Below are positions 21,077 to 49,581 of a stretch of DNA of 54,954 bases, piece by piece (positions within the stretch are counted from its first letter, which is position 1; each line of letters begins with the position of its first letter). Source of the stretch: an uncultured Candidatus Saccharibacteria bacterium. Lineage in GTDB: Bacteria > Patescibacteriota > Minisyncoccia > Phycocordibacterales > Zambryskibacteraceae. Location of the stretch: contig CAYVDB010000002.1 of assembly GCA_964450705.1 (NCBI GenBank), forward strand, positions 1 to 54,954, in the 5' to 3' direction. The notes under the pieces are model-generated. The model worked only from the letters and a program-made list of their open reading frames with translations, was not told the origin of the DNA and did not search any database. The position numbers were made by a program, and so were the translations under genes.

Positions 21077-21105
21077 AAAAAATACATAAAAGACTGTCTT
21101 TTATG
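21077..21105 (-). terminator. intrinsic terminator
   Basis: CATAAAAGAC (21085-21094) / GTCTTTTATG (21096-21105). On the minus strand it is followed by TATTTTTT. Confidence 0.6.
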
Positions 21106-21352: not shown

Positions 21353-21374
21353 CAAAAAATAAGCAGTTATTTTG

Positions 21375-21445: not shown

Positions 21446-21487
21446 AATAATCGACATTATACAAGACAACCACGCGAACGCTACCTG

Positions 21488-21559
21488 TGCACCCGGCAGG
21501 ATTCGAACCCACAACGACTGTTCCGAAGACAGTAATGATATCCATTTCACCACGGGTGC
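21488..21559 (-). tRNA. tRNA-Arg(TCG)
   Basis: GCACCCG/CGGGTGC acceptor, anticodon arm ACTGT-CTTCGGA-ACAGT, T loop TTCGAAT. 72 nt, no CCA. Confidence 0.85.
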
Positions 21560-24163: not shown

Positions 24164-24206
24164 AAGAGAAACAAAATCACATTTACGAGGATACCACACT
24201 CTTCTC

Positions 24207-25121
24207 CTAAGAGTCGTGGAACTTCTTATGGACGTCTCGCAAATGCTTATCAGTAATGTGGGTATAAATCTGAGTAGTCCCAATATTCGCATGCCCCAAA
24301 AGCATCTGTACAGAGCGTATATCTGCACCGTTCTGGAGTAAATCAGTCGCAAAGCTATGTCGAATGACGTGAGGAGTAACCTTTTTTGATATACCAGCTT
24401 CTATAGCATAACGCTTTACAATACGTTCTACTGAGCGAGAAGTTAATCGTTTCTCCTCAAGGGCATTTTTGTTTTTGCCAATATTTATAAAAAGAGCCTC
24501 TTCAAGATCCTTTCTCTCCTTTAAATAAACTTTGAGAGCGTCTTTTGCTTTACCGGAAAGGAACACTACTCGAACTTTTTCTCCTTTACCCCTTACAGAA
24601 AACTCGTCCCTTGATAAATCGAGATCTCGAGGAAGGGAACATAGCTCAGAAACACGCAAACCTGTAGAAAATAACAACTCTAGAATCGCTTTATCCCGGA
24701 GAGATTTTAAATCATTCCCCTTAGGGGCTTTTAGTATTCTACCGAGTTCATCTTTAGTAATAAGGTCAAGGGACCGTTCTGGAATTTTAGCCAACTCAAT
24801 TCGCTCAGGTTGCAAAGATGAAATTCCTCTCTTCATGAGGTATTTAAGAAAGGCTCTGAGTGCAATTAGATAGTAATTCTGAGTTTTTTTCTTAAGCGTA
24901 TCTTTAGACCCTAGCTTACCCTGAGAAAGAACCGGCTTTCGATTAAGCCATAATCTATACTCCCTCAGAAGTGAGTCTGTTATGTCTTTTGGAGACTTTA
25001 CTTTTGAATAAGAGGCGAAGGTATCGAGGTAATGGCTATAGTTTTCTATAGTCTTTTGGCTACGACCCCGCTCAATCTCCAAATGTTCAAGAAAATCTCG
25101 AATTAGTGCCTCAAGCGTCAT
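24207..25121 (-). CDS. tyrosine site-specific recombinase, XerC/XerD type
   Basis: N-terminal SAM-like domain and C-terminal HVIRHSFATDLLQNGADIRSVQMLLGHANIGTTQIYTH. Confidence 0.85.
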   Translation of the reverse strand: MTLEALIRDFLEHLEIERGRSQKTIENYSHYLDTFASYSKVKSPKDITDSLLREYRLWLNRKPVLSQGKLGSKDTLKKKTQNYYLIALRAFLKYLMKRGISSLQPERIELAKIPERSLDLITKDELGRILKAPKGNDLKSLRDKAILELLFSTGLRVSELCSLPRDLDLSRDEFSVRGKGEKVRVVFLSGKAKDALKVYLKERKDLEEALFINIGKNKNALEEKRLTSRSVERIVKRYAIEAGISKKVTPHVIRHSFATDLLQNGADIRSVQMLLGHANIGTTQIYTHITDKHLRDVHKKFHDS

Positions 25122-29296: not shown

Positions 29297-30214
29297 CTAA
29301 AAAGGATTCTTTGCTCCTCGCACCTCAAAATGCAAATGTGCCCCTGTTGCTTTCCCAGTTTGCCCAACATAACCAATTACCTGCCCTTGTTCGACTGTTT
29401 CGCCTTGCTTAACAGTATTCTCTTGATTATGAGAGTACAGAGTCTGAGTGCCGTTATCGTGCTGAATAACAATATAGGTACCGTACCCTCCATTCCAACC
29501 ACCGTTTCGACTTACAATCACAAGACCTTTTGCAGAAGCGAGAATTGGAGTGCCTGCCTTTGCCGCAATATCTACTGCGTTATAACCGTGAATTCCTTGC
29601 GTTCTCTTTCCTGAAACTGGGCGGAGATAATACCCAGCGTACTCTTTAACGCTCTGAATAATTTTTGTGCGGATAACACCAGAAGAAGAACTTTGAGACA
29701 GAATTTCTCCGTCAGGAACAATAATAATATCCCCAACTGCAAGAGTGGTCTTTTCTGTAACGTTGTTATAAGTCTTAACCTCTTCTAAATCGCCTTTATA
29801 TGTCTTAGTTATAGACGCGAGCGTATCACCCTTTTTTACAACGTGGCGAACTCCAGAAACAGGGAGTATCACCAAAGTTTGGCCTGGAGAAATAGTCGAG
29901 CCTTGAATGTCATTTGACCATCGAATGGTATTTATTGAAACACCAAACATTTTAGCAATCGTTCCGAGAGTATCCCCCTTCCGCACAACATATATACTAA
30001 TCTTATCTGATATAGGATGATCCTTTTTATTTTCAACCAACCCTCCCGAAGGGCCGTCCTCCGCAATAAGAGCTGTATCATCAATAATAAAATTACTATC
30101 TGAAGAAAAACCCAAGTTTGGATCCGGGTTAAGTGTCGCTTGTAAAAGGGGCATTGTTTGAGAGTTTTCGAGAGATACTTCTTCTGCCTCCGCAGAAGAA
30201 AAGAGATTTGCCAT
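29297..30214 (-). CDS. LysM-domain M23 peptidoglycan endopeptidase (true start probably upstream, non-canonical)
   Basis: Two LysM repeats (YVVRKGDTLGTIAKMF; HVVKKGDTLASITKTY). M23 motifs HGYNAVDI and GATGAHLHFEV. The reading frame stays open upstream to 30451 and encodes a TM segment without any ATG, GTG or TTG. Confidence 0.8.
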   Translation of the reverse strand: MANLFSSAEAEEVSLENSQTMPLLQATLNPDPNLGFSSDSNFIIDDTALIAEDGPSGGLVENKKDHPISDKISIYVVRKGDTLGTIAKMFGVSINTIRWSNDIQGSTISPGQTLVILPVSGVRHVVKKGDTLASITKTYKGDLEEVKTYNNVTEKTTLAVGDIIIVPDGEILSQSSSSGVIRTKIIQSVKEYAGYYLRPVSGKRTQGIHGYNAVDIAAKAGTPILASAKGLVIVSRNGGWNGGYGTYIVIQHDNGTQTLYSHNQENTVKQGETVEQGQVIGYVGQTGKATGAHLHFEVRGAKNPF

Positions 30215-33259: not shown

Positions 33260-33586
33260 AGGAAGAATGACGCAGGCAGGAGGAGCGCCAATGTAACACA
33301 ACTGAAGCCCTGGAGTAAATTGCCCTAACTCCCAAGTCAAAGGAACGCCTATGCGAAACCAAGGCTTCAAGATAGTTGTTCCTGGCATATATGTAAGAGC
33401 CCCAAAAGGAGGAAGGAGTGGCTGAGGATATAGAGGAGCAAAAGGAATCCATAGCATACCACTACAAGTACAAGGTACTGGAAGAGAAGGAACAAAACCA
33501 CCAAATCCTTGCAAACCAAGGGCATCTACAGAAAAAGGAGTGGAAAAACAAAAAAACAAAGCTATAAGAAAAATAGTCTTTTTCAT
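33224..33586 (-). CDS. small secreted Pro/Cys-containing protein (120 aa)
   Basis: Signal peptide MKKTIFLIALFFCFSTPFSVDA. Its ATG overlaps the TGA of the upstream gene (ATGA at 33583-33586). No family recognised. Confidence 0.5.
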   Translation of the reverse strand: MKKTIFLIALFFCFSTPFSVDALGLQGFGGFVPSLPVPCTCSGMLWIPFAPLYPQPLLPPFGALTYMPGTTILKPWFRIGVPLTWELGQFTPGLQLCYIGAPPACVILPSNGHMFLVGTS

Positions 33587-34620
33587 TGTATAAATTGTAC
33601 CAATACAGTAGCTGGATCAGAAAATCCCGCACCGTTACGGATATATATGTAAATCGGCAAAAACCTATTTCTAGAAAAGTCTGATGAAAAAGACAGGTTC
33701 TTCCATTGAGAAGCTTCGCTTAATGAGAAAGTTAGCTTATTATTTTCATCAACAAACCCTTTAATATCTCCGATACTTGTAGTGACGTTGATATCCCCCG
33801 AAGAAACGCCCTCGACTCCCAAAGTGATACTCTCACTTGATGCTCCATGGCGTACTGATAGCGGAATATCTGGAGTGATAATACGAGGACGTTCTATTGG
33901 ATTATTTGAAACAGAAAAGAATGCGCCAAAAGAAATATTGAAGGTTGTTCCTTTCTGATTAGAAACCCATACATTATAAGATCCTTCCGGGAGATTATTA
34001 GGAACTTTAACTTTTAGAGAAAACGTATCGTCACTTGAAACCCCCTCCACTTTAAATGAATCTCCGAAGTGAACAGTATTATTGGACTCCATAAATCCCT
34101 GCCCTTGGATGGCGACTTCTCCCCCCGGCCTTGCGCTCAGTGGGGTTACTGCAAACAAGCGTATTGGTAATCGAAGAAAAGAATCGAGAAGATCTTTTAC
34201 CGTTCCTGAATTATTTATTGCAGGTACTGAAATAATGTTTGGAATGTTTCCTGATGAAATCTCCGTTGATGTATTTTTAAAGGGATCTATTAGATTTAGC
34301 AATTTTTCTTGAGTTCTAGCGCCCACAATACCGGTCGGGGTAGATATGCCTAAAGGAATAAGGATTTCGTATTTATATAGTTCTTGAAAGCGCATGACTG
34401 CATCCCGTGTCTTTTGTCCAAAAAATAAAGACTCTTGCCCCGGAGATCCAGGCCCAGTTGCAACAACTTGTGTGCGAGAATCTTTATTGAGAAGAGATTG
34501 TAAGTATCGGACATCTTCGCCTGTCATTCCAAAAGAAAGCGTTCGATAGAACGTTGAAGCAAAAAGTGATGCGGGTAAAACAAGTACCAATCCAAAAAGA
34601 AAATAAACAAACAATCTCAT
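33583..34620 (-). CDS. secreted peptidoglycan-binding (PG_binding_1-like) plus IPT/TIG-like protein
   Basis: Signal peptide, then GMTGEDVRYLQSLLN...GQKTRDAVMRFQ, then SARPGGEVAIQGQGF...GSYNVWVSNQKG. Confidence 0.6.
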   Translation of the reverse strand: MRLFVYFLFGLVLVLPASLFASTFYRTLSFGMTGEDVRYLQSLLNKDSRTQVVATGPGSPGQESLFFGQKTRDAVMRFQELYKYEILIPLGISTPTGIVGARTQEKLLNLIDPFKNTSTEISSGNIPNIISVPAINNSGTVKDLLDSFLRLPIRLFAVTPLSARPGGEVAIQGQGFMESNNTVHFGDSFKVEGVSSDDTFSLKVKVPNNLPEGSYNVWVSNQKGTTFNISFGAFFSVSNNPIERPRIITPDIPLSVRHGASSESITLGVEGVSSGDINVTTSIGDIKGFVDENNKLTFSLSEASQWKNLSFSSDFSRNRFLPIYIYIRNGAGFSDPATVLVQFIQ

Positions 34621-34640: not shown

Positions 34641-34649
34641 TGTTATACT
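34641..34649 (+). promoter_or_regulatory. extended -10 promoter, leaderless first gene of T4SS-like cluster
   Basis: TGT TATACT, then 7 nt to the ATG at 34657. The 15-nt block TATACTATAAAGAAT recurs at 43454-43468. Confidence 0.45.
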
Positions 34650-34656: not shown

Positions 34657-35505
34657 ATGATTGATTTCCCAACTAAAAAAATCTTCTACTTCTTTATACC
34701 AATAATTCTCGGGATGAGCATATTTGCTGTGCTCCACAAGAACTTAGATATAGAACCTTCTGGTCTTAATATTGTCTCTTCAGGAAACTCTCAAAGAGAA
34801 AAGCTCCCTGAAACAGATCTCAATAATAATAATATTCCAGACTGGCAAGAAACTTTAGAAAAAAAAGAAATACCCCTACAAAACGAAGCCACTTCATCTC
34901 CAACAAGCCTAACGGAAAAGGCTTCCGTTGAACTCTTCGCGGACTACTTAAGCATTAAGGGATCTGGAACGCTTGACACAAATTCAGTAGAAACTCTTGC
35001 GGCAAACTTTCAAAACAAAAATGCTCCAATACAGTACGAAGTGTACTCAGTAAATGACGTCAAGGTTAGCCTTCTTGAGGATCCTTCTTCTTTGCGTGAA
35101 TACGGAAACGCTATTGCAAAAATTAGAGACTTTTATGCATTACAATTCTCTCTATATAATCCTTCTGTAAAAACTCAAGCTGATCCTAATTCTTTTTGGG
35201 CAACAGCAAAAGAAGCTTCTAGGCTTTATACCGAAATGCGTGACGAGCTCGTAGCTATAAGCGTGCCGAAAAGATTTGCAGGCGCCCACGCAGAACTTCT
35301 CAACATATATACTCAAACAATAAATTCACTCCAGGACATGTCTTTGAGTGAGTCTGACCCTTTACGAGGTCTCCAAGGTTTAAATCTATATCTATCTCTT
35401 CAAGAACAAGAAGGAGAAATCCTCATATTTATAGCGCAACAGCTTGAAGAGAGTGGTATACTATTTGGAGTAGGTGAACCTGGATACTTTTTCCATTCAC
35501 TTTAG
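34657..35505 (+). CDS. membrane-anchored hypothetical protein (282 aa)
   Basis: N-terminal TM FYFFIPIILGMSIFAVL. No family recognised. Confidence 0.5.
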   Translation: MIDFPTKKIFYFFIPIILGMSIFAVLHKNLDIEPSGLNIVSSGNSQREKLPETDLNNNNIPDWQETLEKKEIPLQNEATSSPTSLTEKASVELFADYLSIKGSGTLDTNSVETLAANFQNKNAPIQYEVYSVNDVKVSLLEDPSSLREYGNAIAKIRDFYALQFSLYNPSVKTQADPNSFWATAKEASRLYTEMRDELVAISVPKRFAGAHAELLNIYTQTINSLQDMSLSESDPLRGLQGLNLYLSLQEQEGEILIFIAQQLEESGILFGVGEPGYFFHSL

Positions 35506-35512
35506 GATTATC

Positions 35513-37174
35513 GTGAAAAAAATATTTTTGCGCTTCATTACAATATTTCTCTCGCTTTCACTTCTTCTTTCTCCATTTGCGGTACACGCAAATCCTTTCA
35601 GCTCGATACTAAATAAGGTATTAAAACCAGACCCTCCAACAGGGGCTGTTCCTACTGCAGAAAATGCATTACGAACTAAAGAGATAGAGTTTAAAATTTT
35701 TGGGTTTGGAACGGGGATGTCTCTTGACGCCCTTATGTGGCAAATTGGAAGAATTCTTATTGACAAAATGAGCGACGCTGTCGTTGATTGGGTAAATAAG
35801 GGGTATAAGGGTGGCCCTTCATTTGTAACCGACCCTCGACAATTCTTCGGGGAAATAACGGACTCTGTTGGAGGAGTCATAATTCAAGATATTGGAGCAG
35901 GAGCCTTATGTAGTCCTCTTCGACTTCAGGTTCAAGCATCTTTACGCAATCGAATACAAGGACTCCAAACAAGACCAGGAGACCAGCTACAGAATAGGTG
36001 TACCTTTACAAGCGCAGTTGGCAATATTCAAAATTTCTTGGATGGCGACTTTAGTCAAGGAGGCTGGAATGGATGGTTCCACCTTACCCAACGTCCTCAA
36101 AATAACCCTTACGGAGCATTTATAGAGACGGATTCTGAATTAATGGTCCGTATTGGCAACTCAAAAGACCTTGCTCGTCTTGAAGTAGATTGGGCAGGAG
36201 GATTTCTGTCGCCAAGAAAATTTCCTCAGGACTGCAGAAAGGTAGACCCAGTAAACGCAGGACGCTGTCTTGAGTGGAATCCAGCAAAAACACCAGGAAA
36301 AACAATCGAAAAGTCAGTTGAAGATGCATTGGGCACAGAACTTAAACAACTCGAACTTGCAGATGAAGTTGATGAAATCATTGGCGCCGTCCTTGGTCGC
36401 CTCATTAGTGATATTGCAAGTAAGGGGCTATTTAAAAACACTCCGGGATGGACAACTGGACCAGGAAACCCTAATGCAGGAAACCCAATTGGCGGATCAT
36501 GCTACCCTAGTAACCCTAGCGCAATAGTTGGCGATACAATTACTTGGTCAGTAACATCAGCAGGATCAAACCTTTCATACGCATGGTCAGGAACGGATGG
36601 TCTCTCAGGAACAGGCCAAACGGCGTCAATTACTTACACAACCTCAGGCACAAAAGATGCAAGCGTAGTGGTAACAGACACAATCACCGACCCAAACACA
36701 GGCAACATCACAACAAAAACTGCAACCTTCTTGTGCCAGCCTCCAGTAATGGTTTCTAACTTTAAACCACTTCAGGTTCAGTGTGATACTGGGCCAATAA
36801 AAACTGCGAGACTATTAAACGGCCCAGGAAACCCTTCTGAACCAGTAACATGGTATGCGACAATTACGGGAGGATCAGGTAACTTTGTAGTGAGAACCGG
36901 GCTTAATCATATGCTTGGAGGCCGAAGTGAATTTGTCTGGAGTGGAGACGAAAATAGATCACCGCCACCACCTTTTGGGAACAATGGCCCAGCATGGGCA
37001 ATAAATACAGTAACTCGCACAGGAACTACCCCAAATCATGTAATTAAAATCTCAAATACTCGAGTATATTGGTTTCCTGGAACAAAAAGTGCCAACTTGT
37101 CTGTAATTGATGTCGACAATACAGTGGCTCCTGTAATACAGCAAACATGCAGTAATAGTATTGATATTTTCTAA
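35513..37174 (+). CDS. secreted hypothetical protein with PKD-like module
   Basis: GTG start at 35513, preceded by AGGA (35504-35507). Signal peptide KKIFLRFITIFLSLSLLLSPFAVHA. Internal module LSYAWSGTDGLSGTGQTASITYTTSGTKDASVVVTD. Confidence 0.55.
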   Translation: MKKIFLRFITIFLSLSLLLSPFAVHANPFSSILNKVLKPDPPTGAVPTAENALRTKEIEFKIFGFGTGMSLDALMWQIGRILIDKMSDAVVDWVNKGYKGGPSFVTDPRQFFGEITDSVGGVIIQDIGAGALCSPLRLQVQASLRNRIQGLQTRPGDQLQNRCTFTSAVGNIQNFLDGDFSQGGWNGWFHLTQRPQNNPYGAFIETDSELMVRIGNSKDLARLEVDWAGGFLSPRKFPQDCRKVDPVNAGRCLEWNPAKTPGKTIEKSVEDALGTELKQLELADEVDEIIGAVLGRLISDIASKGLFKNTPGWTTGPGNPNAGNPIGGSCYPSNPSAIVGDTITWSVTSAGSNLSYAWSGTDGLSGTGQTASITYTTSGTKDASVVVTDTITDPNTGNITTKTATFLCQPPVMVSNFKPLQVQCDTGPIKTARLLNGPGNPSEPVTWYATITGGSGNFVVRTGLNHMLGGRSEFVWSGDENRSPPPPFGNNGPAWAINTVTRTGTTPNHVIKISNTRVYWFPGTKSANLSVIDVDNTVAPVIQQTCSNSIDIF

Positions 37175-37175
37175 A

Positions 37176-39353
37176 ATGCACTCCTTGCTTTTAAAAAGTA
37201 AGACCTTCTTAAGAAAATGCTCCTTCTTTTTAGGAGTTCTACTTCTTACTATTTTCGTTTTTACGCCCATTCAAGCACAGGCTGAGTTCACTCTTTTTAA
37301 CATTGGCGACATAACGGGGAATGCCATAAAAGCGCTTCTTGGCGGACTAATGTCTGGCATTCTAGCTCTCGCCGCTTTCTTTACTGGCTTTTGCGGAGTA
37401 GTTCTAAACAAAACACTCGAATACACTCTCATAAACATGAGTTCGAATATTTCGAGTATTAGCGGTATTACTATCGCTTGGGGAGTCATTAGAGACCTTA
37501 TAAATATGAGCTTCATATTTATTCTTCTCTATATTGCAATTGGAACAATTCTTGGCTTAAGCGGGGTAAATTGGAAAAAAACTCTTATTCAAATAGTAGT
37601 TGCTGCTATTCTTATAAACTTTAGCCTTTTCTTCACTAAAGTAATTATTGACGCGTCAAATCTTGTTGCTCTTACATTTTATGATCAAATTATCCCTGCC
37701 GGTAGCACTACAATTCAGGGTTTTTCAGATGTATTTGCTAATTCTTTAAAAATTACTACCCTGTACAACACAAAAACCGCTGATGTTTCTTGGGAACAAA
37801 TAAGCTCTTTGGGGCTAATGGGGACACTCTTCCTACTAGTAACAGCATTTGTATTTTTGGCCGCAGCTTTATTATTTATCGCTCGTTTTATAACTCTTGT
37901 ATTTGTCTTAATCCTTTCTCCAATAGGTTTTTTCGGAAGTCTTCTGCCTGGGCTAGGAAGTTATGCCTCAAAATGGAAAGAAACCTTAATAGGCCAAGCT
38001 CTTTTCGCTCCTATTTATATGATTCTGACGTGGGTAATTGTAGTCATAATAAACGATCCAACCTTTGTCCTCGGAAGACAGGGGGATATGGCAAATACTT
38101 TATCTGGAGCAACAAACGCAACGGGCGCAACATTTGCAACAGGAGCATGGGGTATTTTTGTGAACTTTCTTATTGTCATAGGGTTCATGATTGGAACTTT
38201 GATTATTTCAAAGAGTACCGCAAGCAGAGGATCGAATCTCGGCCAAAAACTTGTCGGCAATATGCTTGGATATGGAGTAGGGGCCGCTGGATGGACTGGG
38301 AGAAAAACACTTGGCCGAGTTGGTCAATCTATTGCAGATAGTGAGAGTGTAAAAGCAAGAGCTTCTAAAGGAGGGGCGGCAGGTATGGTCGGCAGACTAC
38401 AGCTCAAGGCAGGAAGAGGTATGGCAAAGGGAAGTTACGACTTCAGGGAAAGCAACTTTGCAAATATGGGCAAGAAACTCGGCGTAGACGGACTTGAGCT
38501 TGGTCTTGGCGGTAAAGCTGGAGGAAAAGGCGGGTATGCTCAACAGATAAAAGACCGCGCAAAGAAAGAAAAAGAATATGCCGAATCTTTGAAACCATCA
38601 GATATTGCGCTTGATGAAGCAAAGCAAGCTGTAGAAAGAGCGAAAAACACAGAAGTGTCTGACGAGCGGTACAAACAAGAATTTGTAAGAAGAAAAAATA
38701 GAGAAAGAGAAGCCGAGAGAAAGGCGGGCTTGGCGCGCGCAGAATTGAGAGAATACGAGAAGCAGATTAGAACAAAATCACTTAAAGCAGACCCAGAGCT
38801 TGTGGCTCGGCGCAGAAGAAAGGTGGAAGAGGCTGATAGCGAACTTACAAATGCACGAACTGCAGCCCGTACTCCTGTATCAGAACTCAAGAAAACAATA
38901 AAAGACGCTTCAGTTAAAGAAGCTCAAAACAAACTGGATCAAATTCAAGGAGTAAACGAAGAAGAAGCAAAGAAAAGAGTTCGCATAGAGAAAGGTATAA
39001 AAAATGATGCGCAATGGAAAGAATACCTTGAATCAGAAGAAGGAAAGAAAGAAATTAAAGACCGTCAGATAAAAAGTGAAGGCGACAAACGAAAGGAGAG
39101 CTATGCAGAAACAATCACCCCAGAAGGTAATTGGGGATTGAGCACAAAACGAGTACTCTTCGTTGGAAAAGTAAAGAAAGAATACAAACAGGCTGCAGCC
39201 GACTTACGTAAAAATAAAAAATCTGTTAAGGACGAACTGGAAAAAATTCTCAAAGATCAAGGAGAAATAAGAGAAAAAGAATCAGATTCTAGTGGTGCTG
39301 GAGAACCAAAACCAGAAACGAAAAAAGAAGGCGACGGAGGACCTAAAACATAA
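37176..39353 (+). CDS. polytopic VirB6/TrbL-like membrane protein with ~300-aa K/E/R-rich C-terminal tail
   Basis: Signal peptide followed by at least 7 hydrophobic segments up to about residue 380. The rest is highly charged (EREAERKAGLARAELREYEKQIRTK...). ATG 37176 is preferred over TTG 37161. Confidence 0.5.
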   Translation: MHSLLLKSKTFLRKCSFFLGVLLLTIFVFTPIQAQAEFTLFNIGDITGNAIKALLGGLMSGILALAAFFTGFCGVVLNKTLEYTLINMSSNISSISGITIAWGVIRDLINMSFIFILLYIAIGTILGLSGVNWKKTLIQIVVAAILINFSLFFTKVIIDASNLVALTFYDQIIPAGSTTIQGFSDVFANSLKITTLYNTKTADVSWEQISSLGLMGTLFLLVTAFVFLAAALLFIARFITLVFVLILSPIGFFGSLLPGLGSYASKWKETLIGQALFAPIYMILTWVIVVIINDPTFVLGRQGDMANTLSGATNATGATFATGAWGIFVNFLIVIGFMIGTLIISKSTASRGSNLGQKLVGNMLGYGVGAAGWTGRKTLGRVGQSIADSESVKARASKGGAAGMVGRLQLKAGRGMAKGSYDFRESNFANMGKKLGVDGLELGLGGKAGGKGGYAQQIKDRAKKEKEYAESLKPSDIALDEAKQAVERAKNTEVSDERYKQEFVRRKNREREAERKAGLARAELREYEKQIRTKSLKADPELVARRRRKVEEADSELTNARTAARTPVSELKKTIKDASVKEAQNKLDQIQGVNEEEAKKRVRIEKGIKNDAQWKEYLESEEGKKEIKDRQIKSEGDKRKESYAETITPEGNWGLSTKRVLFVGKVKKEYKQAAADLRKNKKSVKDELEKILKDQGEIREKESDSSGAGEPKPETKKEGDGGPKT

Positions 39354-39355
39354 TT

Positions 39356-39940
39356 ATGGAGTACACAGATTTAATAAAAGAGAGATTAGATAATGCGCCA
39401 CAGGAGATTAAAGAGTATTTAGCGCGCTCTTCTTGGGAAGCTATAACCTTACCACTAATACAGCAAAACTCCCTTTCGGCAGAGCAAGCAACATCTATAA
39501 ATAATGAAATCATATTCGTCCTACTTGGCCTTGAGCTTAAGCAAGACTTTGAAAAGAATACAAGGGAAAATGCTAAGCTTCCTGGAATTCTAGCAACAAA
39601 CCTAAACAAAGAAGTCCAACAAAAGGTTTTTAGACCACTATCCGCTTTTCTGCCTACAGAATCCGAAGACGAAGATTTGCTAAATAACAGCAAAAACTTG
39701 CTTGAAGACGCAAAAGGTAACAGCGACAACGTACTTCCTCCACTTGTTGATCACACAAAAGAAATACCTCTTACAAACAACCCTCTAGAAAAACCTGCGC
39801 AAAGGGAAGAAGTGCCAAAGATGTCTCTCCAAGAGAAACTCATGAGTCAAATTGCGACTCCTCCTCAAGGAAATAAAGGAGCTCAAATAATAACCAAGGC
39901 ATATAAAGAGCAGGACCCTTATCGTGAGCCCCTAAACTAG
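39356..39940 (+). CDS. hypothetical protein (194 aa)
   Basis: Starts 2 nt after the previous stop. No TM segment and no family recognised. Confidence 0.45.
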   Translation: MEYTDLIKERLDNAPQEIKEYLARSSWEAITLPLIQQNSLSAEQATSINNEIIFVLLGLELKQDFEKNTRENAKLPGILATNLNKEVQQKVFRPLSAFLPTESEDEDLLNNSKNLLEDAKGNSDNVLPPLVDHTKEIPLTNNPLEKPAQREEVPKMSLQEKLMSQIATPPQGNKGAQIITKAYKEQDPYREPLN

Positions 39941-39941
39941 T

Positions 39942-40382
39942 ATGCGATTTCAAGTACCTCAATTCATAGAAGTAGAAGATAAAATTTTTGGACCTTTAAC
40001 CCTCAAACAATTCATCTATCTAGCAGGCGGAGGGGGAATAGTGGTTGTGCTTTGGAATGTTTTGCCGAAATTTATTGCAGTCATTATCGCCCTCCCTGTA
40101 ATAGGGGTTTCTGTCGCGCTGACTTTTTTTAAGATAAATAACCGCCCATTCATCATAATGCTTGAATCTTTCTTTAAATACACAGTCGGACAAAAGCTAT
40201 ACATCTGGAAAAAAGAAGAGCGGGAGGCAACCCCAGGGGAAAGAGCAAAAGCAAATCCTCATGTTGCACTTCCACATCTCTCAAATAGCAAACTGAAAGA
40301 TTTATCATGGTCTCTCGATGTAACAAAAACTTCAGGAATAGGAGAAGATAATGAAAAAATTGTTGGGGAAGATTTACGTTAG
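39942..40382 (+). CDS. PrgI-family (VirB3-like) T4SS membrane protein
   Basis: MRFQVPQFIEVEDKIFGPLTLKQFIYLAGGGGIVVVLW followed by a second TM. Matches the remembered PrgI family N-terminal pattern. Confidence 0.7.
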   Translation: MRFQVPQFIEVEDKIFGPLTLKQFIYLAGGGGIVVVLWNVLPKFIAVIIALPVIGVSVALTFFKINNRPFIIMLESFFKYTVGQKLYIWKKEEREATPGERAKANPHVALPHLSNSKLKDLSWSLDVTKTSGIGEDNEKIVGEDLR

Positions 40383-40417
40383 AATTTTTGTAAAAAATAG
40401 ATAGCTCACTCTTATCT

Positions 40418-40426
40418 TGATATAAT
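40418..40426 (+). promoter_or_regulatory. extended -10 promoter, leaderless
   Basis: TGA TATAAT, then 7 nt to the ATG at 40434. Confidence 0.45.
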
Positions 40427-40433
40427 ACTACTC

Positions 40434-41093
40434 ATGGCAAATTCATTTCGAGCAACACAATCATTTGTACCGATCGAAGATGTTCGAGATGGAGTGATTC
40501 TCATGAAAGATGGGGGAATGCGCGCCGCGCTTTTGTGCTCTTCATTAAACTTTTCCTTAAAATCAGAGGATGAAAAGATGGCGGTTCTTTCTCAATTTCA
40601 AGATTTTTTAAATTCTCTGGATTTTTCAATTCAGATATTCATACAATCAAGACGCCTTGATATCCGACCTTATCTTGCTCTTCTCGAAAATCAGAAAAAG
40701 AATCAGATGAATAGTCTGATGAAAATACAGATCCAAGAGTATGTCGAGTTCATAAAAAACTTCACTGACAATACAAACATTATGACAAAAAGCTTTTTTG
40801 TCATTGTTCCTTATACTCCTGCAATTCTCGGAGGGAAGACGCTGTCTTTAGGGGGCAAACTTATTGGGAAAAAAGAAAACAAAGAAACAATAGAAAGAAC
40901 TAAAGAAGAAGAATTTGAGGAGCACCGAACACAGCTAGAGCAGAGACTGTCAGTAGTAGAACAGGGGCTTGTACGGACCGGGATCCGCGTTGCTCATCTT
41001 GGAACCGAAGAGGTCATTGAGCTTTTTTATAAAATATTCAATCCAGGGGAGACTGATAAGCCGATCCAGCTTTCAGAAACACCAACTAATTAA
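40434..41093 (+). CDS. detached N-terminal domain of a Gram-positive-type VirB4 ATPase
   Basis: TQSFVPIEDVRDGVILMKDGGMRAALLCSSLNFSLKSEDEKMAVLSQFQDFLNSLDFSIQIFIQS resembles the N-terminus of Tn916-Orf16/PrgJ-like VirB4 proteins (from memory). Confidence 0.5.
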   Translation: MANSFRATQSFVPIEDVRDGVILMKDGGMRAALLCSSLNFSLKSEDEKMAVLSQFQDFLNSLDFSIQIFIQSRRLDIRPYLALLENQKKNQMNSLMKIQIQEYVEFIKNFTDNTNIMTKSFFVIVPYTPAILGGKTLSLGGKLIGKKENKETIERTKEEEFEEHRTQLEQRLSVVEQGLVRTGIRVAHLGTEEVIELFYKIFNPGETDKPIQLSETPTN

Positions 41094-41094
41094 C

Positions 41095-42912
41095 ATGGGA
41101 CTTTTCGACTTTTTAAAAAAGAAGACAGCCGAAACAACCCCTCAAGGAGTTTCTATTCTTCCGCATGAAATTTACGAAGCTAATACACTTGACCTCAAAG
41201 ATATTATCGCTCCATCAGCTCTCCAAGTCTCACCTAAGGAATTAAATCTTGGAGAAAAAATAGTCCGAAGCTTCTTCGTGATTTCATATCCTCGTTTCTT
41301 AGGGGAAAGTTGGTTTGCTCCAATTATAAATCTCGACCGAGTATTCGATGTATCAATCTTTGTCCATCCGATCGAGACCTCAAAAGTTTTGAAGCAATTT
41401 CAAAAGAAGGTAGCTGAAGTCCAGAGTCAAATTCACGAAAGAGAAGAAAAAGGTCTCGTTCGAGACCCAGTGCTTGATGTTGCCTATCAAGATCTAGAAA
41501 ACCTCCGCGACAACCTACAGCAGGCTCAGGAAAAACTCTTTGATGTTGGACTTTATGTTTCTATTTATGCCGACAACGACCAAGAATTAGACAGAATTGA
41601 GTCTGAAGTAAAATCTATTCTTGAATCTAAGCTTGTATATGTAAAACCGGCCCTCTTTCAGCAGGAACAAGCGTATAAAAGCATACTGCCTCTCGGAGAA
41701 GATGTTCTGCAAGTTAATTCGAAGCTCAACTCAACTCCACTTTCAAGCCTGTTTCCTTTCATATCTTTTGACCTTACATCCGATAAAGGTATCCTTTATG
41801 GAATAAACCGCCACAACTCTTCTCTTGTTCTCTTTGATAGATTTTCTTTGGAAAACTACAACTCTATTACCTTTGCAAAGTCAGGCGCCGGAAAATCTTA
41901 CGCAACCAAACTTGAAATTCTAAGAACTCTGATGTTCGATACTGAGGTCTTAGTCATTGATCCTGAGAGAGAATATGAATATATGGCCGAAGCTGTAGGT
42001 GGGCGATACTTTAAGATTTCATTGAACTCAGAACACCACATAAACCCTTTTGATCTTCCGCCACCAGGGGAAGGGGAATCGAGCGCAAGTGTTTTGCGGT
42101 CAAACATCGTTAACCTTGTAGGACTTTTCCGACTTATGATGGGAGGCCTTACCGCAGAAGAAGACGCCATCATTGATAGAGCAATTACCGAGACCTATGC
42201 TTTGAAAGACATTACGGCCGACTCTGATTTTAGAAATATCGAGCCTCCGCTTCTTTCTGATTTCGAATTAGTTCTTTCAGGGCTTGAAGGCGGAGAGTCT
42301 CTTGCTCAAAGACTTACCAAATATACAAAAGGCACTTGGGCTGGATTCATTAATCGTCCAACAAATATTGATATAAACAAAAAATTTGTAGTCTTCTCTC
42401 TACGAGACATGGAAGATGAGCTCAAACCAATTGCAATGTATATTGTTACTCACTATATCTGGAGTGCAATCAGAAAAGAGCTGAAAAAACGTCTTTTGGT
42501 AATCGATGAGGCATGGTGGATGATGCGTTCTGAAGATACCGCATCCTTCCTTCTTAACCTCGCAAAGAGAGGAAGAAAATACTACCTTGGACTCGCAACC
42601 ATTACTCAAGATGTCGACGACTTCTTAAAATCTCCTTACGGAACGCCGATTATTACCAACTCCTCAATTCAAATACTTTTGAAACAATCTCCAACGGCAA
42701 TTGATCGTCTTCAGGAAGTTTTCAATCTTACCGACGAAGAAAAATATCTTTTGCTCGAATCAGACGTGGGAGAGGGAATATTCTTTGCCGGACTCAAACA
42801 CGTAGCTATAAAAATTATAGCCTCGTACACCGAAGACCAAATTATTACTTCTGATCCTTCACAAATACTTGCAATACAAAAATCAAAACAAGCTCTTGAA
42901 CCAGTAGTATAA
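41095..42912 (+). CDS. VirB4/TrbE-family T4SS ATPase
   Basis: ORF trimmed to ATG 41095, 1 nt after the preceding TAA. Walker A FAKSGAGKSYAT and Walker B LLVIDEAWWMM. VirB4-type middle region (RSFFVISYPRFLGESWFAPII). Confidence 0.85.
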   Translation: MGLFDFLKKKTAETTPQGVSILPHEIYEANTLDLKDIIAPSALQVSPKELNLGEKIVRSFFVISYPRFLGESWFAPIINLDRVFDVSIFVHPIETSKVLKQFQKKVAEVQSQIHEREEKGLVRDPVLDVAYQDLENLRDNLQQAQEKLFDVGLYVSIYADNDQELDRIESEVKSILESKLVYVKPALFQQEQAYKSILPLGEDVLQVNSKLNSTPLSSLFPFISFDLTSDKGILYGINRHNSSLVLFDRFSLENYNSITFAKSGAGKSYATKLEILRTLMFDTEVLVIDPEREYEYMAEAVGGRYFKISLNSEHHINPFDLPPPGEGESSASVLRSNIVNLVGLFRLMMGGLTAEEDAIIDRAITETYALKDITADSDFRNIEPPLLSDFELVLSGLEGGESLAQRLTKYTKGTWAGFINRPTNIDINKKFVVFSLRDMEDELKPIAMYIVTHYIWSAIRKELKKRLLVIDEAWWMMRSEDTASFLLNLAKRGRKYYLGLATITQDVDDFLKSPYGTPIITNSSIQILLKQSPTAIDRLQEVFNLTDEEKYLLLESDVGEGIFFAGLKHVAIKIIASYTEDQIITSDPSQILAIQKSKQALEPVV

Positions 42913-42913
42913 T

Positions 42914-43426
42914 GTGCCCATGAACCCACAAAGTGAGAAATCTCGACTCCAAAGAGAAACCTACCGTAGACATAAAAATCGCGAGTTAAAAAAGGCTACA
43001 TCCTCACCTGAAGCAGAAGACGCTCCTAACGACATACAAGAGCAAAAGAGCCCTGAACCTAAGGTTGTAACTTCCGGGGCTGAAGGGGGGGATACCCCAA
43101 AACAAAAGATACCATCTTCAACGGCCATACTCATGATTGGTTTGGCGTTATTTTTTGACGGGCTACAATTCTTTCTTAATCTCATACCATTCGTCGGCAA
43201 CGCTTTAAGTAGTATATTTGTTGTCCCACTTGCTTGGCTTTCCTTCTATGTATGGTTCAAGATTAGAGGAGTCGATTTTGTGAGTCCAAAAAGATCCTTG
43301 ACCTTATTTGGCGCCGGTTTTCTTGAGCTTATACCTATACTTAACGTACTCCCAGCTTGGACTCTTGCTGTAGTTGCTCTCATTATTACAACTCGAATAA
43401 AAAAGGGCTTAAAAATTAGCCCCTAA
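42914..43426 (+). CDS. multi-TM hypothetical protein (170 aa)
   Basis: Charged N-terminal ~70 aa followed by 3-4 TM segments. GTG at 42914 or ATG at 42920. Confidence 0.5.
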   Translation: MPMNPQSEKSRLQRETYRRHKNRELKKATSSPEAEDAPNDIQEQKSPEPKVVTSGAEGGDTPKQKIPSSTAILMIGLALFFDGLQFFLNLIPFVGNALSSIFVVPLAWLSFYVWFKIRGVDFVSPKRSLTLFGAGFLELIPILNVLPAWTLAVVALIITTRIKKGLKISP

Positions 43427-43451
43427 TCCACCACGCAGTGGATTTCTTTTT
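43426..43451 (+). terminator. intrinsic terminator inside the T4SS-like cluster
   Basis: ATCCAC (43426-43431) / GTGGAT (43438-43443), then TTCTTTTT. Confidence 0.5.
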
Positions 43452-43459
43452 GCTATACT
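43451..43459 (+). promoter_or_regulatory. extended -10 promoter for the second transcription unit
   Basis: TGC TATACT. The block TATACTATAAAGAAT is identical to 34644-34658. The ATG at 43478 lies 18 nt downstream. Confidence 0.45.
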
Positions 43460-43477
43460 ATAAAGAATATTCTCTAT

Positions 43478-44488
43478 ATGAAGTACTTTCTTTTACTCCT
43501 ATTCGTACTTGGGTGTACACTTTACCCCAACGAAAACCGCCTAGAGGCTCAACTAGTTTCTGGTCGAGTGTCATCTCCGGACGAAAACCTCACCGTAACA
43601 GTGTCCCCACAATACCCAAGACCCTTTGAGACAGTTGGGGTTTCTATAGATACATATTGGTTTGACCTTAACACCGCCAAAATAACATGGCTCGTAAACG
43701 GGAAGGTTGTAGATACTGGAGTCGGCAAGAAAAGTATCTCTCTCACACTTGGAGACATAGGGCAGGGAACCTCTGTTGTCATTCAAGTAGAAAAACCTTA
43801 TGGAGCGACATTTTCTAATACAGTAAGAATATATCCAAGTTCGGTAGAACTTGTGTGGGAAGCTCAAACATACACTCCACCTTTCTATAAAGGGAAAGCG
43901 CTCCCGACCTTTGGCTCAAACATTACCGTATCTGCTTTATCTCGAATTTCAACTGGAGGCACTTTTGTTCCAAAAGAAAACCTACTCTACACATGGAAAC
44001 TTAACGGTAGCAGCGCTCCCATAGAAAGCGGACTTGGAAAATATTCAATTAGCTTCCCGGCAACAATAACTAGAAAAGAGGAGGTTGTTAGTGTTTCTGC
44101 ATCTATACCAAATACCGGGGTAGAAGCACTTGGAGAAACGACCATTAAGCTCTCCAACCCTGTTATTCGGATTTACGAGGATCATCCTCTATACGGGACA
44201 CTTTCACAAACCGCCCTTTCTCAATCCATCCGACTACTCTCCCAGGAAATATCATTCAAAGCTGTTCCTTTTTTCTTTTCTAACAAAGACCCACAATTCT
44301 CAGAGCTTGAGTTTAATTGGAACATGAATGGGAAAAATATCACAGACACAACATCTGATACAATTGTCCTCAGAAGTAGTGGGGAAGAAGCGGGTCGCTC
44401 AACTGTATCGGTTGAAATAAACAACAGTGAGAAAACATCTCAATTTGGAGAAACATCATTTACGCTCAACTTTGGCAACAATGAATAA
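43478..44488 (+). CDS. putative lipoprotein (336 aa), unknown family
   Basis: MKYFLLLLFVLGC lipobox-like signal and a beta-rich body. Confidence 0.5.
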   Translation: MKYFLLLLFVLGCTLYPNENRLEAQLVSGRVSSPDENLTVTVSPQYPRPFETVGVSIDTYWFDLNTAKITWLVNGKVVDTGVGKKSISLTLGDIGQGTSVVIQVEKPYGATFSNTVRIYPSSVELVWEAQTYTPPFYKGKALPTFGSNITVSALSRISTGGTFVPKENLLYTWKLNGSSAPIESGLGKYSISFPATITRKEEVVSVSASIPNTGVEALGETTIKLSNPVIRIYEDHPLYGTLSQTALSQSIRLLSQEISFKAVPFFFSNKDPQFSELEFNWNMNGKNITDTTSDTIVLRSSGEEAGRSTVSVEINNSEKTSQFGETSFTLNFGNNE

Positions 44489-45398
44489 AGTCATTTTTAA
44501 AAAAACAGTTTTAGGATTACTTTCTTTTGCTCTTTTAATAATTCTATTTTCTCAAACCAGCGCCTTTGCCCAAGGACGACAATATACTCCACTTGAACCC
44601 CTCCCAGGTATTGTTAACAGCTCAGGAAAAACAGATATCGCTACATATATACCCGCTGTTTTTACCCTCCTTATAGCAATAGCGGGTGGCCTTGCGGTCA
44701 TAATGATTGTCATAGGAGGCTTCCAGTATGTATCTACTGATTCCTTAACTGGCAAAAAAGAAGGAAAAGAAAGAATCACCAACGCCATAATAGGGCTTCT
44801 CCTTGCTATCGCTTCTTATATAATTTTAAACACCATAAATCCCCAAATTTTAAACTTCAACCTTAGAATTCCAGGAGCTCCACAATCTACTCCGCCAACC
44901 ACAACGCCTCCACCTCCACCACCATCTGGATCTTGTAATATAAATTCAAGCACATCATGCACTGGGTCAAGCTGTTTAAATCTATGCCCTACCGGATCAA
45001 ACTGGGTAGTTGGAAATGACCCTCAAAACAGATCGACCTTGTCTTCTGTAGGAATATCTGTGAATAATCCGAACTGTCAGAGGGTTGGCGATAGGGGTTG
45101 TACGAGCCTAGCATTTCTTTCTTCGCGAGCGATGTCTGGATTACAGTGGTTAGGTAATAATTGTTCAAACTGCAATATAGTAGTTACTGGGGGAACAGAG
45201 TTTTGGCTCCACTCGAGTCACGGTCCTGGAATGGGACGTGTAGACCTAAGACTCAATGGAACGCTAGATAATTTTATAAAAACAAGAGGAACGAGTGTTG
45301 GCGGAAGCAACATATGCTTTAATGGACAGCCCGCTTGGATTTTAAATGGGGCTATTTTTGTATTAGAAAATAATAATCATTGGCATATTTGTTTCTAG
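44481..45398 (+). CDS. VirB2/T4SS-pilin-like protein fused to a Cys-rich putative Zn-peptidase (LAS/M15-like) domain
   Basis: ORF trimmed to MNKVIFKKTVLGLLSFALLIILFSQTSAFA. Two-helix pilin-like hairpin (IPAVFTLLIAIAGGLAVIMIVIGGFQY...AIIGLLLAIASYIIL), a poly-Pro linker, then SSHGPGMGRVDL and NNHWHICF. Overlaps the previous gene by 8 nt. Confidence 0.55.
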   Translation: MNKVIFKKTVLGLLSFALLIILFSQTSAFAQGRQYTPLEPLPGIVNSSGKTDIATYIPAVFTLLIAIAGGLAVIMIVIGGFQYVSTDSLTGKKEGKERITNAIIGLLLAIASYIILNTINPQILNFNLRIPGAPQSTPPTTTPPPPPPSGSCNINSSTSCTGSSCLNLCPTGSNWVVGNDPQNRSTLSSVGISVNNPNCQRVGDRGCTSLAFLSSRAMSGLQWLGNNCSNCNIVVTGGTEFWLHSSHGPGMGRVDLRLNGTLDNFIKTRGTSVGGSNICFNGQPAWILNGAIFVLENNNHWHICF

Positions 45399-45401
45399 AA
45401 T

Positions 45402-46634
45402 ATGGAGAAATTAAACAAAAACACAATCTGGATAGTTCTCGCTATACTCATAATTGTAGTTGGATCTTTATTATGGATTTTTCTAGGAGGGGAGGACTCT
45501 TCTTCTCCTCAAAACACAAACACCGGTACCCCTTTTGGTACCCCGGGGAATGAATCTTCGAATAACTCTGGAGCTCCTTTTGGCTCGATATCGCAGGACA
45601 ACCCATTTTTACCACCAGTTCAAAATTCTTTTTCTTCTGAAAAAAAGCTAAATCGCCTAAGCGAAGCGCCTGTTTCTGGAGCAACCATTACAACTTCTGG
45701 AAGCAGTACGGTTGTACGATATATGGATAAAGCAACTGGCCATGTTTACGAAGTTACGCTACCAAATGGCGAAAGAATACGACTTTCGAATGTAACAATT
45801 CCAAAAGTTGGAAAAACTATATGGAGAGATAAAGATTTTCTTCTTGCGCAAACAGTTGAAAATGGATTTATTAAAACAATCGTGGGGACAATCGCCTCAA
45901 GCACAAGTTCATCGACCGAAGAACGACTTCTTACCAAAAACCTTGGTTTTGGAAAAGAAAACGCGCTTTTCTCTCCTTCTAAAAAAAGTGGCTTGTATAC
46001 CAGCAAAGGAACTTCCGGTATTCAACTTTTCACAACAGACAAATTACTTGAAAAGCCTGTTTTAGTGTGGAGTTTCCCAACCTCAGAATGGCTTATTGAA
46101 TGGCCAAAAGAAGACACGATAACCCTCACCACCAAACCGTCACACGGGGTACCAGGATATATGTATGCCCTAAACCCTAGCACAAAAGCAAATTCTAAAA
46201 TCCTAAACGACATACCAGGGTTAACCACACTATCAAGTCCTGATGGATTAAAAGTTCTTTACGGAGCATCCGGAGAAAATACATCTTCTTTGTTTCTTTA
46301 CGACCTAAAAAATCGCTCCTCCGTAGCTTTAGGTATAAAAACTCTTCCAGAAAAGTGTGTCTGGGGCTCAAAAAACATCTATTGCGCAGTGCCGACAAAC
46401 CTTACAAATGAAACCTTGCCTGACTTGTGGTACCAAGGGGTAATTTCTTTCAAAGATTCTCTTTGGAGCATATCTTTCGATGGAGAAGAAGGGCTCCTAG
46501 AAACTGAATCCGTAAAAATCTCAGAGATCGCGGGAGGTAACATTGATCTAATAGAGCCCACCCTTAGCGGAGACGAAAAAACTTTAATTTTTACCAACAA
46601 ACTTGATGGTATTCTCTGGGCCCTCTCTTTGTAA
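45402..46634 (+). CDS. membrane-anchored protein, possible PD40/beta-propeller repeats
   Basis: N-terminal TM IWIVLAILIIVVGSLLWIF. Repeats resemble SPDGLKVLY and LSGDEKTLIF. Confidence 0.45.
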   Translation: MEKLNKNTIWIVLAILIIVVGSLLWIFLGGEDSSSPQNTNTGTPFGTPGNESSNNSGAPFGSISQDNPFLPPVQNSFSSEKKLNRLSEAPVSGATITTSGSSTVVRYMDKATGHVYEVTLPNGERIRLSNVTIPKVGKTIWRDKDFLLAQTVENGFIKTIVGTIASSTSSSTEERLLTKNLGFGKENALFSPSKKSGLYTSKGTSGIQLFTTDKLLEKPVLVWSFPTSEWLIEWPKEDTITLTTKPSHGVPGYMYALNPSTKANSKILNDIPGLTTLSSPDGLKVLYGASGENTSSLFLYDLKNRSSVALGIKTLPEKCVWGSKNIYCAVPTNLTNETLPDLWYQGVISFKDSLWSISFDGEEGLLETESVKISEIAGGNIDLIEPTLSGDEKTLIFTNKLDGILWALSL

Positions 46635-47734: not shown

Positions 47735-47869
47735 TCAAACAGTAAGCTTTCGGCGACCTTTTCTTCTTCGTCTAAGAACCGTTTTTTTACCAGGGGTACT
47801 CTTTTTTCTCTTAAGAAATCCGTGGGATCGGGCTCTTTTACGCTTTTTAGGTTGGTATGTTTGAGACAT
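47735..47869 (-). CDS. rpmH: 50S ribosomal protein L34
   Basis: Absent from the ORF track because it is under 60 aa. Hand translation: MSQTYQPKKRKRARSHGFLKRKKSTPGKKTVLRRRRKGRRKLTV (44 aa). Confidence 0.9.
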   Translation of the reverse strand: MSQTYQPKKRKRARSHGFLKRKKSTPGKKTVLRRRRKGRRKLTV

Positions 47870-49380: not shown

Positions 49381-49396
49381 AGGCTGTGAAATATTC

Positions 49397-49581
49397 TGGG
49401 GATAAAAAATGATTTTGTGGATAAAATTATAAAAATCTTAAGAAATCCTACTCTTATGAAATTAACTCACTCACATTTACACAGTTCGAGAATCCAAAAG
49501 GGTTTTATAACTAGCCTTATTTTTGATTTTTCCCTTTTTCCACAACCCTAGTAGTAACTATAAGTATTTATATATAGATAT
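49397..49581. promoter_or_regulatory. oriC-like DnaA-box cluster plus AT-rich segment between dnaA and dnaN
   Basis: TGGGGATAA (49397-49405), a perfect TGTGGATAA (49416-49424), TTTTCCACA (49536-49544), and the AT-rich run taagtatttatatatagatat (49561-49581). Confidence 0.55.

Follow-up and report, generated by a model that had tools for sequence, protein, structure and literature searches.

An eleven-gene, probably non-conjugative type IV secretion cluster beside dnaA in a Zambryskibacteraceae genome

What is the role of a set of conjugation-type genes that is located in a bacterial chromosome, close to dnaA, and is accompanied by neither a relaxase nor a coupling protein? This question is raised by a cluster of eleven genes (g1 to g11) found in a 54,954-nt stretch of DNA of an uncultured Candidatus Saccharibacteria bacterium classified in the family Zambryskibacteraceae (assembly GCA_964450705.1, contig CAYVDB010000002.1, positions 1 to 54,954); this whole stretch, as analyzed, is referred to below as the window. 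An earlier note on this DNA had interpreted the cluster as a domesticated envelope machine derived from a type IV secretion system (T4SS) rather than as a conjugative element. This interpretation is supported by the gene content of the contig, its composition, synteny, the conservation of VirB4 and the literature (PMC10633639; PMC12857230; PMC12102498). The cluster is very probably a core-chromosomal, non-conjugative T4SS of Patescibacteria, descended from the MPF-FATA conjugation machinery of monoderm bacteria and serving host contact and the passage of macromolecules.

The cluster consists of eleven open reading frames (ORFs) of the plus strand (34657-46634; Table 1), separated by gaps of 7, 1, 2, 1, 51, 1, 1, 51, -8 and 3 nt, and its end is 1393 nt distant from the start of dnaA. 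The coordinates and the range of gaps given in the earlier note are exact, and its rounded distance of 1.4 kb to dnaA is correct. Protein families were assigned by Pfam and NCBIfam profile searches, with the Pfam scans covering 41 ORFs of the 55-kb contig. The set of related loci comprises the best 80 of at least 590 relatives retrieved by a VirB4 scan of one genome per species, all of them in Patescibacteria metagenome-assembled genomes (MAGs), onto which 20 proteins of the window were mapped for the synteny analysis.

The VirB4 ATPase is encoded by g7, whose product carries Walker A (AKSGAGKSY) and Walker B (LLVIDEAWWM) motifs, exceeds the cut-off of the NCBIfam model conju_CD1110 (377.5 bits vs. 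325; aligned model positions 182-733) and matches P-loop_TraG of Pfam (E 8.6e-27). The preceding gene, g6, matches positions 103-233 of VirB4_plasma (E 1.3e-11), positions 3-118 of the CD1110 model and TrsD (NF041427; E 1.2e-4); judged from these model positions, g6 and g7 together tile one VirB4, in line with the detached N-domain that had been proposed in the earlier note. A frameshift artefact as the cause of the split gene was ruled out, since 77 of the 80 genomes encode TrsD in an ORF of its own, with a length of 205-221 aa (median identity 63%). The g7 product shares 84-100% identity with each of the 120 best matches listed, the named ones being Candidatus Zambryskibacteria, Paceibacteria and Parcubacteria MAGs, and 78-100% identity with thousands of Patescibacteria proteins. 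The contig belongs to a Zambryskibacteria-like genome within Paceibacteria. The best plasmid-encoded relatives of its VirB4 (CD1110-family, Clostridium, Bacillales and Streptomyces) share 29-37% identity. By sequence similarity, membership of the Patescibacteria VirB4 clade is strongly suggested.

Two further T4SS components named in the earlier note were confirmed by profiles above gathering score: (i) the PrgI/VirB3-like protein encoded by g5 (PF12666, 40.1 bits vs. 27), detected in 75 loci with a median identity of 53%, and (ii) the pilin encoded by g10 (T4SS_pilin, PF18895, 38.8 bits vs. 26.6), whose pilin domain is present in all 25 orthologues searched. The g3 protein is a candidate for an "extended" VirB6/TrbL-like channel subunit, mainly because of its topology of about seven transmembrane (TM) helices and its position upstream of prgI-virB4. 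In this case topology and position agree with the earlier note, while the profile support is sub-threshold and weaker than had been stated: g3 matches the CD3337/EF1877 mobilome membrane family with E 9e-4 (18 bits vs. a cut-off of 120), and among its orthologues, found in 61 of the loci, TrbL (PF04610) was detected in 2 of 25 and TrbL_4 in 1 of 25, below significance for a family call. A profile built from the g3 orthologues gave no significant match to PDB sequences.

Relaxases, VirD4/FtsK/TcpA-type ATPases and replication or partition genes were not detected by the Pfam scans of the contig, and a census of its Walker A motifs returned only PilB, a ComM-like protein, UvrD, VirB4 and DnaA. 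No direct repeats flank the cluster beyond 16-29-mers occurring at chance level, and the only recombinase gene found, of XerC/D type, is located 9.5 kb upstream, behind housekeeping genes, and does not flank the cluster. The absence of mobility genes and of a flanking integrase or repeats, as claimed in the earlier note, was thus upheld for this contig. The composition of the cluster is that of its flanks, with no break in GC content. Upstream lie uvrD and rsmA, and downstream yidC, rnpA, rpmH, dnaA, dnaN and a gene for a class A penicillin-binding protein (PBP). The location described in the earlier note, from rsmA to yidC-rnpA-rpmH-oriC, was correct as to these flanks, with the difference that a divergent PG_binding_1 gene intervenes between rsmA and g1. 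The spacer between dnaA and dnaN, containing one perfect DnaA box and two boxes with one mismatch and forming the most AT-rich part of the window, is the likely oriC.

The earlier note had proposed comparing the gene order beside oriC in relatives. The order uvrD-rsmA-[g1...g11]-yidC-rnpA-dnaA-dnaN-PBP was seen wherever the contig reaches, and 79 of the 80 loci are colinear. Median identities to the window proteins are 82% for VirB4 (a value somewhat inflated by choosing the 80 genomes as best VirB4 matches), 63% for TrsD, 62% for DnaA, 54% for UvrD, 53% for PrgI and 50% for DnaN, and they fall to 25-32% for g1, g2, g3, g9 and g11. The 20-point lead of VirB4 over DnaA indicates that the motor is very strongly constrained and that the exposed parts change rapidly, which would suit a machine with a conserved motor and surface parts turned toward the host. 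The cluster is a vertically inherited core machine and not a mobile element or an integrative and conjugative element (ICE), because it is colinear in nearly all of these loci, resembles its flanks in composition, encodes a VirB4 more conserved than DnaA, and lacks mobility genes and borders on the contig.

The composition of the cluster, the missing relaxase, TrsD, the pilin and the proximity to dnaA were all published between 2023 and 2025, and the observation is correct but already known. According to PMC12102498 (Quiñonero-Coronel 2025), Patescibacteria VirB4 proteins form a distinct clade that is sister to MPF-FATA, TrsD is the most abundant associated component, and PrgI/VirB3, VirB6 and VirB2-like pilins are encoded near virB4. 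A relaxase is reported there for no more than 103 genomes of Patescibacteria, with proximity to virB4 in 15 cases, and genes of VirD4-like type IV coupling proteins (T4CPs), present in many Patescibacteria, are mostly far from virB4. The neighborhood in Paceibacteria contains dnaA, dnaN, rnpA, ksgA and rpmH, which the authors read as a gene-dosage effect. The arrangement described there is the same as that of the window: (i) TrsD beside VirB4; (ii) PrgI/VirB3 together with a VirB2-like pilin and a protein that is, in the window, a candidate for VirB6; (iii) no relaxase or T4CP nearby; (iv) the neighbors dnaA, dnaN, rnpA, ksgA/rsmA and rpmH; and (v) the MPF-FATA affinity. Nothing essential differs; the six accessory genes are unannotated there, and the pilin C-domain is not mentioned in the text consulted.

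Another close system, which has been studied experimentally, is that of Southlakia epibionticum ML1 (Saccharimonadia). Transposon sequencing (Tn-seq) showed that its origin-proximal cluster SEML1_0006-0019, including the pilins, is essential for epibiotic growth; this cluster resembles the T4SSs that Gram-positive bacteria use in conjugation and has no recognizable relaxase or coupling protein (PMC10633639; Wang 2023). The window shares with it the chromosomal position near the origin and the absence of these two components. Southlakia differs in having six divergent pilins, whereas the window encodes one pilin with an added C-terminal domain, and in having peptidase and lysozyme genes after virB4, whereas in the window the pilin itself bears a peptidase-like domain. 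Essentiality was demonstrated for S. epibionticum only. Patescibacteria T4SSs are a recognized new branch of the superfamily (PMC12857230; FEMS review 2025), and for one member of the phylum that has been cultured, a preprint of 2026 describes uptake of host RNA and tubular structures, possibly T4SS pili, that reach into the host.

With the conjugative MPF-FATA systems (pCF10 Prg/Pcf, pGO1 Trs and the CD1110 family of CTn2 of Clostridium difficile) the cluster shares PrgI and TrsD homologues, a VirB4 passing the CD1110-family cut-off and the absence of outer-membrane core proteins. Unlike these systems, it contains no relaxase, PcfC/VirD4 or recognizable VirB8-like (PrgL) or VirB1-like (PrgK) protein, and it encodes a VirB2-like pilin, which the Gram-positive systems lack (PMC12857230). 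They are also mobile and their VirB4 proteins are only 29-37% identical, while the present cluster is chromosomally fixed. The Ptl system of Bordetella, VirB of Brucella and ComB of Helicobacter likewise combine VirB4 with a VirB2 pilin and lack a coupling ATPase and relaxase, but they belong to the diderm MPF-T type and possess a VirB7-10 core, and their sequence affinity to the cluster is limited to the P-loop of VirB4.

In the mechanism that we propose on the basis of established T4SS biology, a VirB4/TrsD hexamer would dock onto PrgI and the VirB6-like channel, and ATP-driven extraction of the pilin from the membrane would lead to the polymerization of a tube across the single-membrane envelope. 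The products of g1, g2 (with swappable adhesin domains), g9 and g11, secreted or anchored in the membrane, would build the wall-spanning, adhesive part, and the zinc-peptidase-like C-domain of the pilin could cut peptidoglycan, either that of the own wall or that of the host. The whole would be a machine for the host-cell contact and macromolecule passage (outward for effectors and/or inward for host material) that an epibiotic lifestyle requires, and not for conjugation.

Six members of the cluster (g1, g2, g4, g8, g9 and g11) had been described in the earlier note as unassignable, and our profile searches placed none of them in a family. They are lineage-specific; four are anchored in the membrane or secreted (g1, g2, g9 and g11), g8 is polytopic and g4 is soluble. 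The g1 protein (TM helix at residues 9-27) gave no match in Pfam and NCBIfam; it was detected in 34 loci, at 21-31% identity and in a constant position. The g4 protein, also without a match in the profile searches, is poorly conserved (17 of 80 loci, 22-36% identity), and g8, for which these searches returned no family, was found in 39 loci. A Pfam scan of 48 pooled g1, g4 and g8 orthologues revealed no consistent family, with TSP3_bac repeats in five of them.

Two GTG codons, at 35474 and 35513, are candidates for the start of g2, and the deposited annotation gives it a length of 548 aa. Its product has a signal peptide and a conserved N-domain of about 310 aa, rich in Cys and Trp, with the invariant residues W93, C133, C163, GGW183-185 and C241. 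The C-terminus matches PKD_4 (E 2e-5), and in orthologues it is exchanged for Bact_surface_Ig-like or F5/8 type C domains; one orthologue matches DUF4141 (E 1.9e-7). The AlphaFold2 (AF2) model of the N-domain, all-alpha with one hairpin, is of low confidence (pLDDT 64.6, pTM 0.30), and a Foldseek search with this model against PDB was empty. A role as a VirB5-like tip adhesin would be speculation.

The g9 protein carries a lipobox-like signal and three repeats of about 100 aa with a W..NG motif, whose tryptophans W71, W173 and W281 are invariant and spaced by about 100-108 aa; it was found in 76 loci and gave only weak Ig-like matches (BiPBP_C, E 1e-3). The g11 protein, found in 60 loci, has no Pfam match. 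Its profile gave a single hint among PDB sequences, to TolB (E 0.014), and its ectodomain may be a beta-propeller. A Cys pair and W/Y/G residues are invariant. A concatenated query of the g2 N-domain and g11 retrieved 37 relatives of g2 and, for g11, only one identical sequence. Orthologue alignments of g2, g9 and g11, run as profiles against PDB sequences, yielded nothing significant.

The pilin, the only one in the window, has a length of 305 aa instead of about 100. A signal peptide and two TM helices make up residues 1-~125, and a Cys-rich C-domain of 157 aa is joined to them by a Pro-rich linker. A word-indexed homology search with the C-domain missed even its own protein due to an index limit; an exhaustive HMMER search was used instead and gave 810 relatives, each representing a 50%-identity cluster, of which 195 had E<=1e-10. 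In most of the 150 matches listed the domain is located C-terminally in proteins of about 270-350 aa, and 57 of the 64 sampled relatives have an N-terminal T4SS_pilin domain, one with an additional SLT transglycosylase domain. The residues E240, H244, H247, D255, H300 and H302 are invariant in 64 sequences; in a set of 87 the same holds except for the equivalent of H302, which is conserved in at least 90%. We read the H-x7-D ... H-x-H pattern as that of LAS zinc peptidases (M15, Hedgehog-N and M23-like).

The C-domain itself has no Pfam match, but among 13 of its relatives Peptidase_M15_4 (E 1.6e-4) and HH_signal (E 0.11) were each detected in two, below gathering scores. The family profile found nothing among PDB sequences, and a PHROGs scan returned only an unannotated family. 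The AF2 model of the domain is of high confidence (pLDDT 96.6, pTM 0.90); its best match in BFVD bears the annotation Hedgehog-like (E 0.016, probability 0.97, TM-score 0.40), whereas Foldseek against PDB gave nothing at E<=1e-3 (MepA, E 2.7). From its motif and from weak profile and fold signals, the C-domain is probably a LAS-type zinc peptidase, with support that is convergent but weak.

In the orthologues at syntenic positions, conservation covers the pilin part but not the C-terminal part. A hidden Markov model (HMM) of the window-type C-domain matched 16 of about 66 related loci, always in the pilin gene, while pilins of other species end in a different domain with H/D/H residues ("E[SA][WY]PPT..H..CH..G.CVD ... 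GEH[YF][HS]") or in long coiled coils (for two examples, see Table 1). A tentative proposal, which we think less likely than not, is that the pilin is a carrier of a swappable C-terminal "payload", here a previously unclassified LAS-like zinc peptidase. If this were true, and the C-domain were displayed along the pilus or at its tip, the filament itself would cut the cell wall of the host or its own and would be an enzymatically armed conjugative-type pilus. We found no mention of a fusion of pilin and C-domain in the literature searched, and this lead is possibly new.

Several points weigh against a T4SS for host contact and macromolecule passage: (i) its function is one that we infer, and the experiments on T4SSs come from outside Paceibacteria; (ii) the analysis covered a single contig of 55 kb, and a VirD4-like gene or a relaxase may lie elsewhere in the genome; (iii) the VirB6 assignment of g3 is sub-threshold; (iv) no VirB8-like (NTF2) or VirB1-like subunit was recognized within the cluster; (v) the peptidase reading of the C-domain combines a motif with faint profile and fold signals; and (vi) the VirB4 identities carry the selection effect mentioned above.

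The alternative that fares best is an organelle for adhesion or wall remodeling only, in which a VirB2-type filament bears enzymatic or adhesive C-domains and the channel passes no substrate. It agrees with the absence of a coupling protein that would recruit substrates, with the exchange of pilin C-domains (peptidase-like in 16 of about 66 species, coiled-coil or other in the rest) and with the swappable adhesin domains of g2 and the fast evolution of the exposed parts. We nevertheless consider it unlikely: Bordetella Ptl and Brucella VirB secrete proteins without a T4CP (PMC12857230; PMC12102498), and adhesion in Saccharibacteria is already supplied by type IV pili. That VirB4 and TrsD are so highly conserved is equally compatible with an organelle of this kind and with a secretion machine.

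A competence machine like ComB of Helicobacter or the archaeal Ced system, which would use its pilus and VirB4 to take in DNA from the environment or the host, is a still less likely explanation. Neither a relaxase nor a T4CP is encoded on the contig, as would be expected of such a machine, Patescibacteria lack de novo nucleotide synthesis (PMC10633639; the 2026 preprint), and comF, recG and radA are co-located in the class ABY1 according to PMC12102498. VirB4 also matches the DNA-import ATPase CedB (E 4e-8), but with 32 bits against a cut-off of 700 this is a generic P-loop resemblance only, and no CedA or ComB-like partners were recognized in the profile searches. In Southlakia, moreover, cells with a comEC deletion lose competence but stay viable, in contrast to the essential role of the T4SS (PMC12857230), and competence is credited there to type IV pili, the genes of which are also present in the window.

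That the cluster is a remnant or part of an ICE or plasmid, with a relaxase, a coupling protein and an integrase located beyond the contig, is scarcely credible and has been largely refuted by synteny, composition, absent borders and VirB4 conservation: VirB4, TrsD and PrgI are proteins of conjugation type, the nearest relatives outside the Candidate Phyla Radiation (CPR) are mostly found on predicted conjugative plasmids (1860 of 2778 matching records) and only 55 kb of the genome was seen, but the cluster and its flanks keep their order amid housekeeping genes beside oriC in 79 of the 80 loci, show no compositional break, flanking repeats or flanking integrase, encode a VirB4 more conserved than DnaA, and belong to a group in which, according to PMC12102498, relaxases occur near virB4 in just 15 cases.

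The transcription signals of this T4SS cluster were predicted at consensus level only. Extended -10 promoter-like boxes of the form TGnTATAnT precede g1, trsD and g9; those of g1 and g9 sit within a near-identical 18-nt repeat, and the one before g1 may mark a leaderless start of the first transcription unit. The best promoter match of the region lies in the first 51-nt gap, where the -10 box (40419-40426) ends 7 nt before the ATG of trsD, and the second 51-nt gap contains a terminator-like hairpin. Among the g1, prgI, trsD and g9 orthologues, 55-61% (g1, 59%; trsD, 61% of 77 orthologues; g9, 55%) carry, 4-12 nt ahead of the start codon, a box resembling TATAAT, vs. 11-20% of the other genes. 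On these consensus matches, the pattern would point to three or four transcription units whose mRNAs are leaderless or nearly so.

Table 1. Predicted genes and sequence features of the cluster and of other parts of the window (positions in the window unless a locus prefix is given).
Feature	Coordinates	Strand	Description
g1	34657-35505	+	282 aa, one N-terminal TM helix, mostly helical ectodomain
g2	35513-37174	+	secreted, 553 aa, conserved N-domain and variable adhesin-type C-terminus
g3	37176-39353	+	polytopic, ~7 TM helices, ~380-aa charged C-terminal tail
g4	39356-39940	+	194 aa, soluble, TM helix absent
g5	39942-40382	+	PrgI/VirB3-like, two TM helices, membrane anchor of VirB4
g6	40434-41093	+	TrsD-like, separately encoded VirB4 N-domain
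g7	41095-42912	+	VirB4 ATPase, monoderm MPF-FATA / CD1110 type
g8	42914-43426	+	170 aa, disordered N-terminus, 3-4 TM helices
g9	43478-44488	+	336 aa, secreted or lipoprotein-like (LGC), three beta-rich repeats
g10	44481-45398	+	VirB2-like T4SS pilin with C-terminal domain
g10 C-domain	44925-45395	+	probable LAS-type zinc peptidase
g11	45402-46634	+	410 aa, N-terminal TM helix, low-complexity linker, ~330-aa ectodomain
Pilin orthologues compared with g10	L013:14580-15422; L046:13264-14400		examples
Extended -10 promoter-like box TGTTATACT	34641-34649	+	7 nt before g1 ATG
Sigma-70-like promoter TAGATA-17-TG-TATAAT	40398-40426	+	first 51-nt gap; best match of the region, 10/12, TG present
Terminator-like hairpin and T run	43425-43444	+	just after g8, second 51-nt gap; consensus-level match only
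Extended -10 promoter-like box TGCTATACT	43451-43459	+	18 nt before g9 ATG
PG_binding_1 gene	33583-34620	-	between rsmA and g1
rpmH	47735-47869
dnaA	48028-49380
dnaA-dnaN spacer	49381-49581		likely oriC
Perfect DnaA box	49416-49424		within the spacer
Type IV pilus / T2SS-like block	335-8912	-
Prepilin-motif protein	335-2311	-	CarboxypepD_reg domains
PilC/T2SSF	2160-3377	-
PilB/T2SSE	3379-5163	-	with MshEN
fn3 protein	5220-8912	-	1230 aa
tRNA genes	19491-21559	-	Gly-GCC, Pro-GGG, Pro-TGG, Gly-TCC, Arg-TCG
Exo_endo_phos ORF	23402-24352		overlaps the recombinase gene
XerC/XerD-like tyrosine recombinase	24207-25121	-	Phage_integrase and SAM_1
LysM and Peptidase_M23 protein	29297-30214	-	just upstream of the cluster

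Other genes of the window include a block resembling type IV pilus and type II secretion system (T2SS) genes, which corresponds to the other envelope machine that, besides the T4SS, has been reported to be essential in Saccharibacteria; its pilC and pilB (2160-5163) are the type IV pilus genes referred to above. Just upstream of the cluster a protein with LysM and Peptidase_M23 domains is encoded. It and the PG_binding_1 protein, whose gene was detected in 22 of the 80 syntenic loci, are possible wall-remodeling partners of VirB1 type. The five tRNA genes lie where the GC skew swings strongly to negative values, at 18-21 kb.

The Patescibacteria T4SS has been described by reviewers as the most unusual newcomer to the T4SS superfamily, derived from conjugation and essential for the survival of an ultra-small epibiont. 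The window adds no new category to this picture. It provides a clean example from Paceibacteria, a class without a genetic system, that combines strict synteny beside oriC, a motor more conserved than DnaA and fast-evolving exposed parts. The fusion of the pilin with a putative peptidase, together with the swapping of domains on the pilin and on g2, may offer testable handles on how the envelope of the host is breached.

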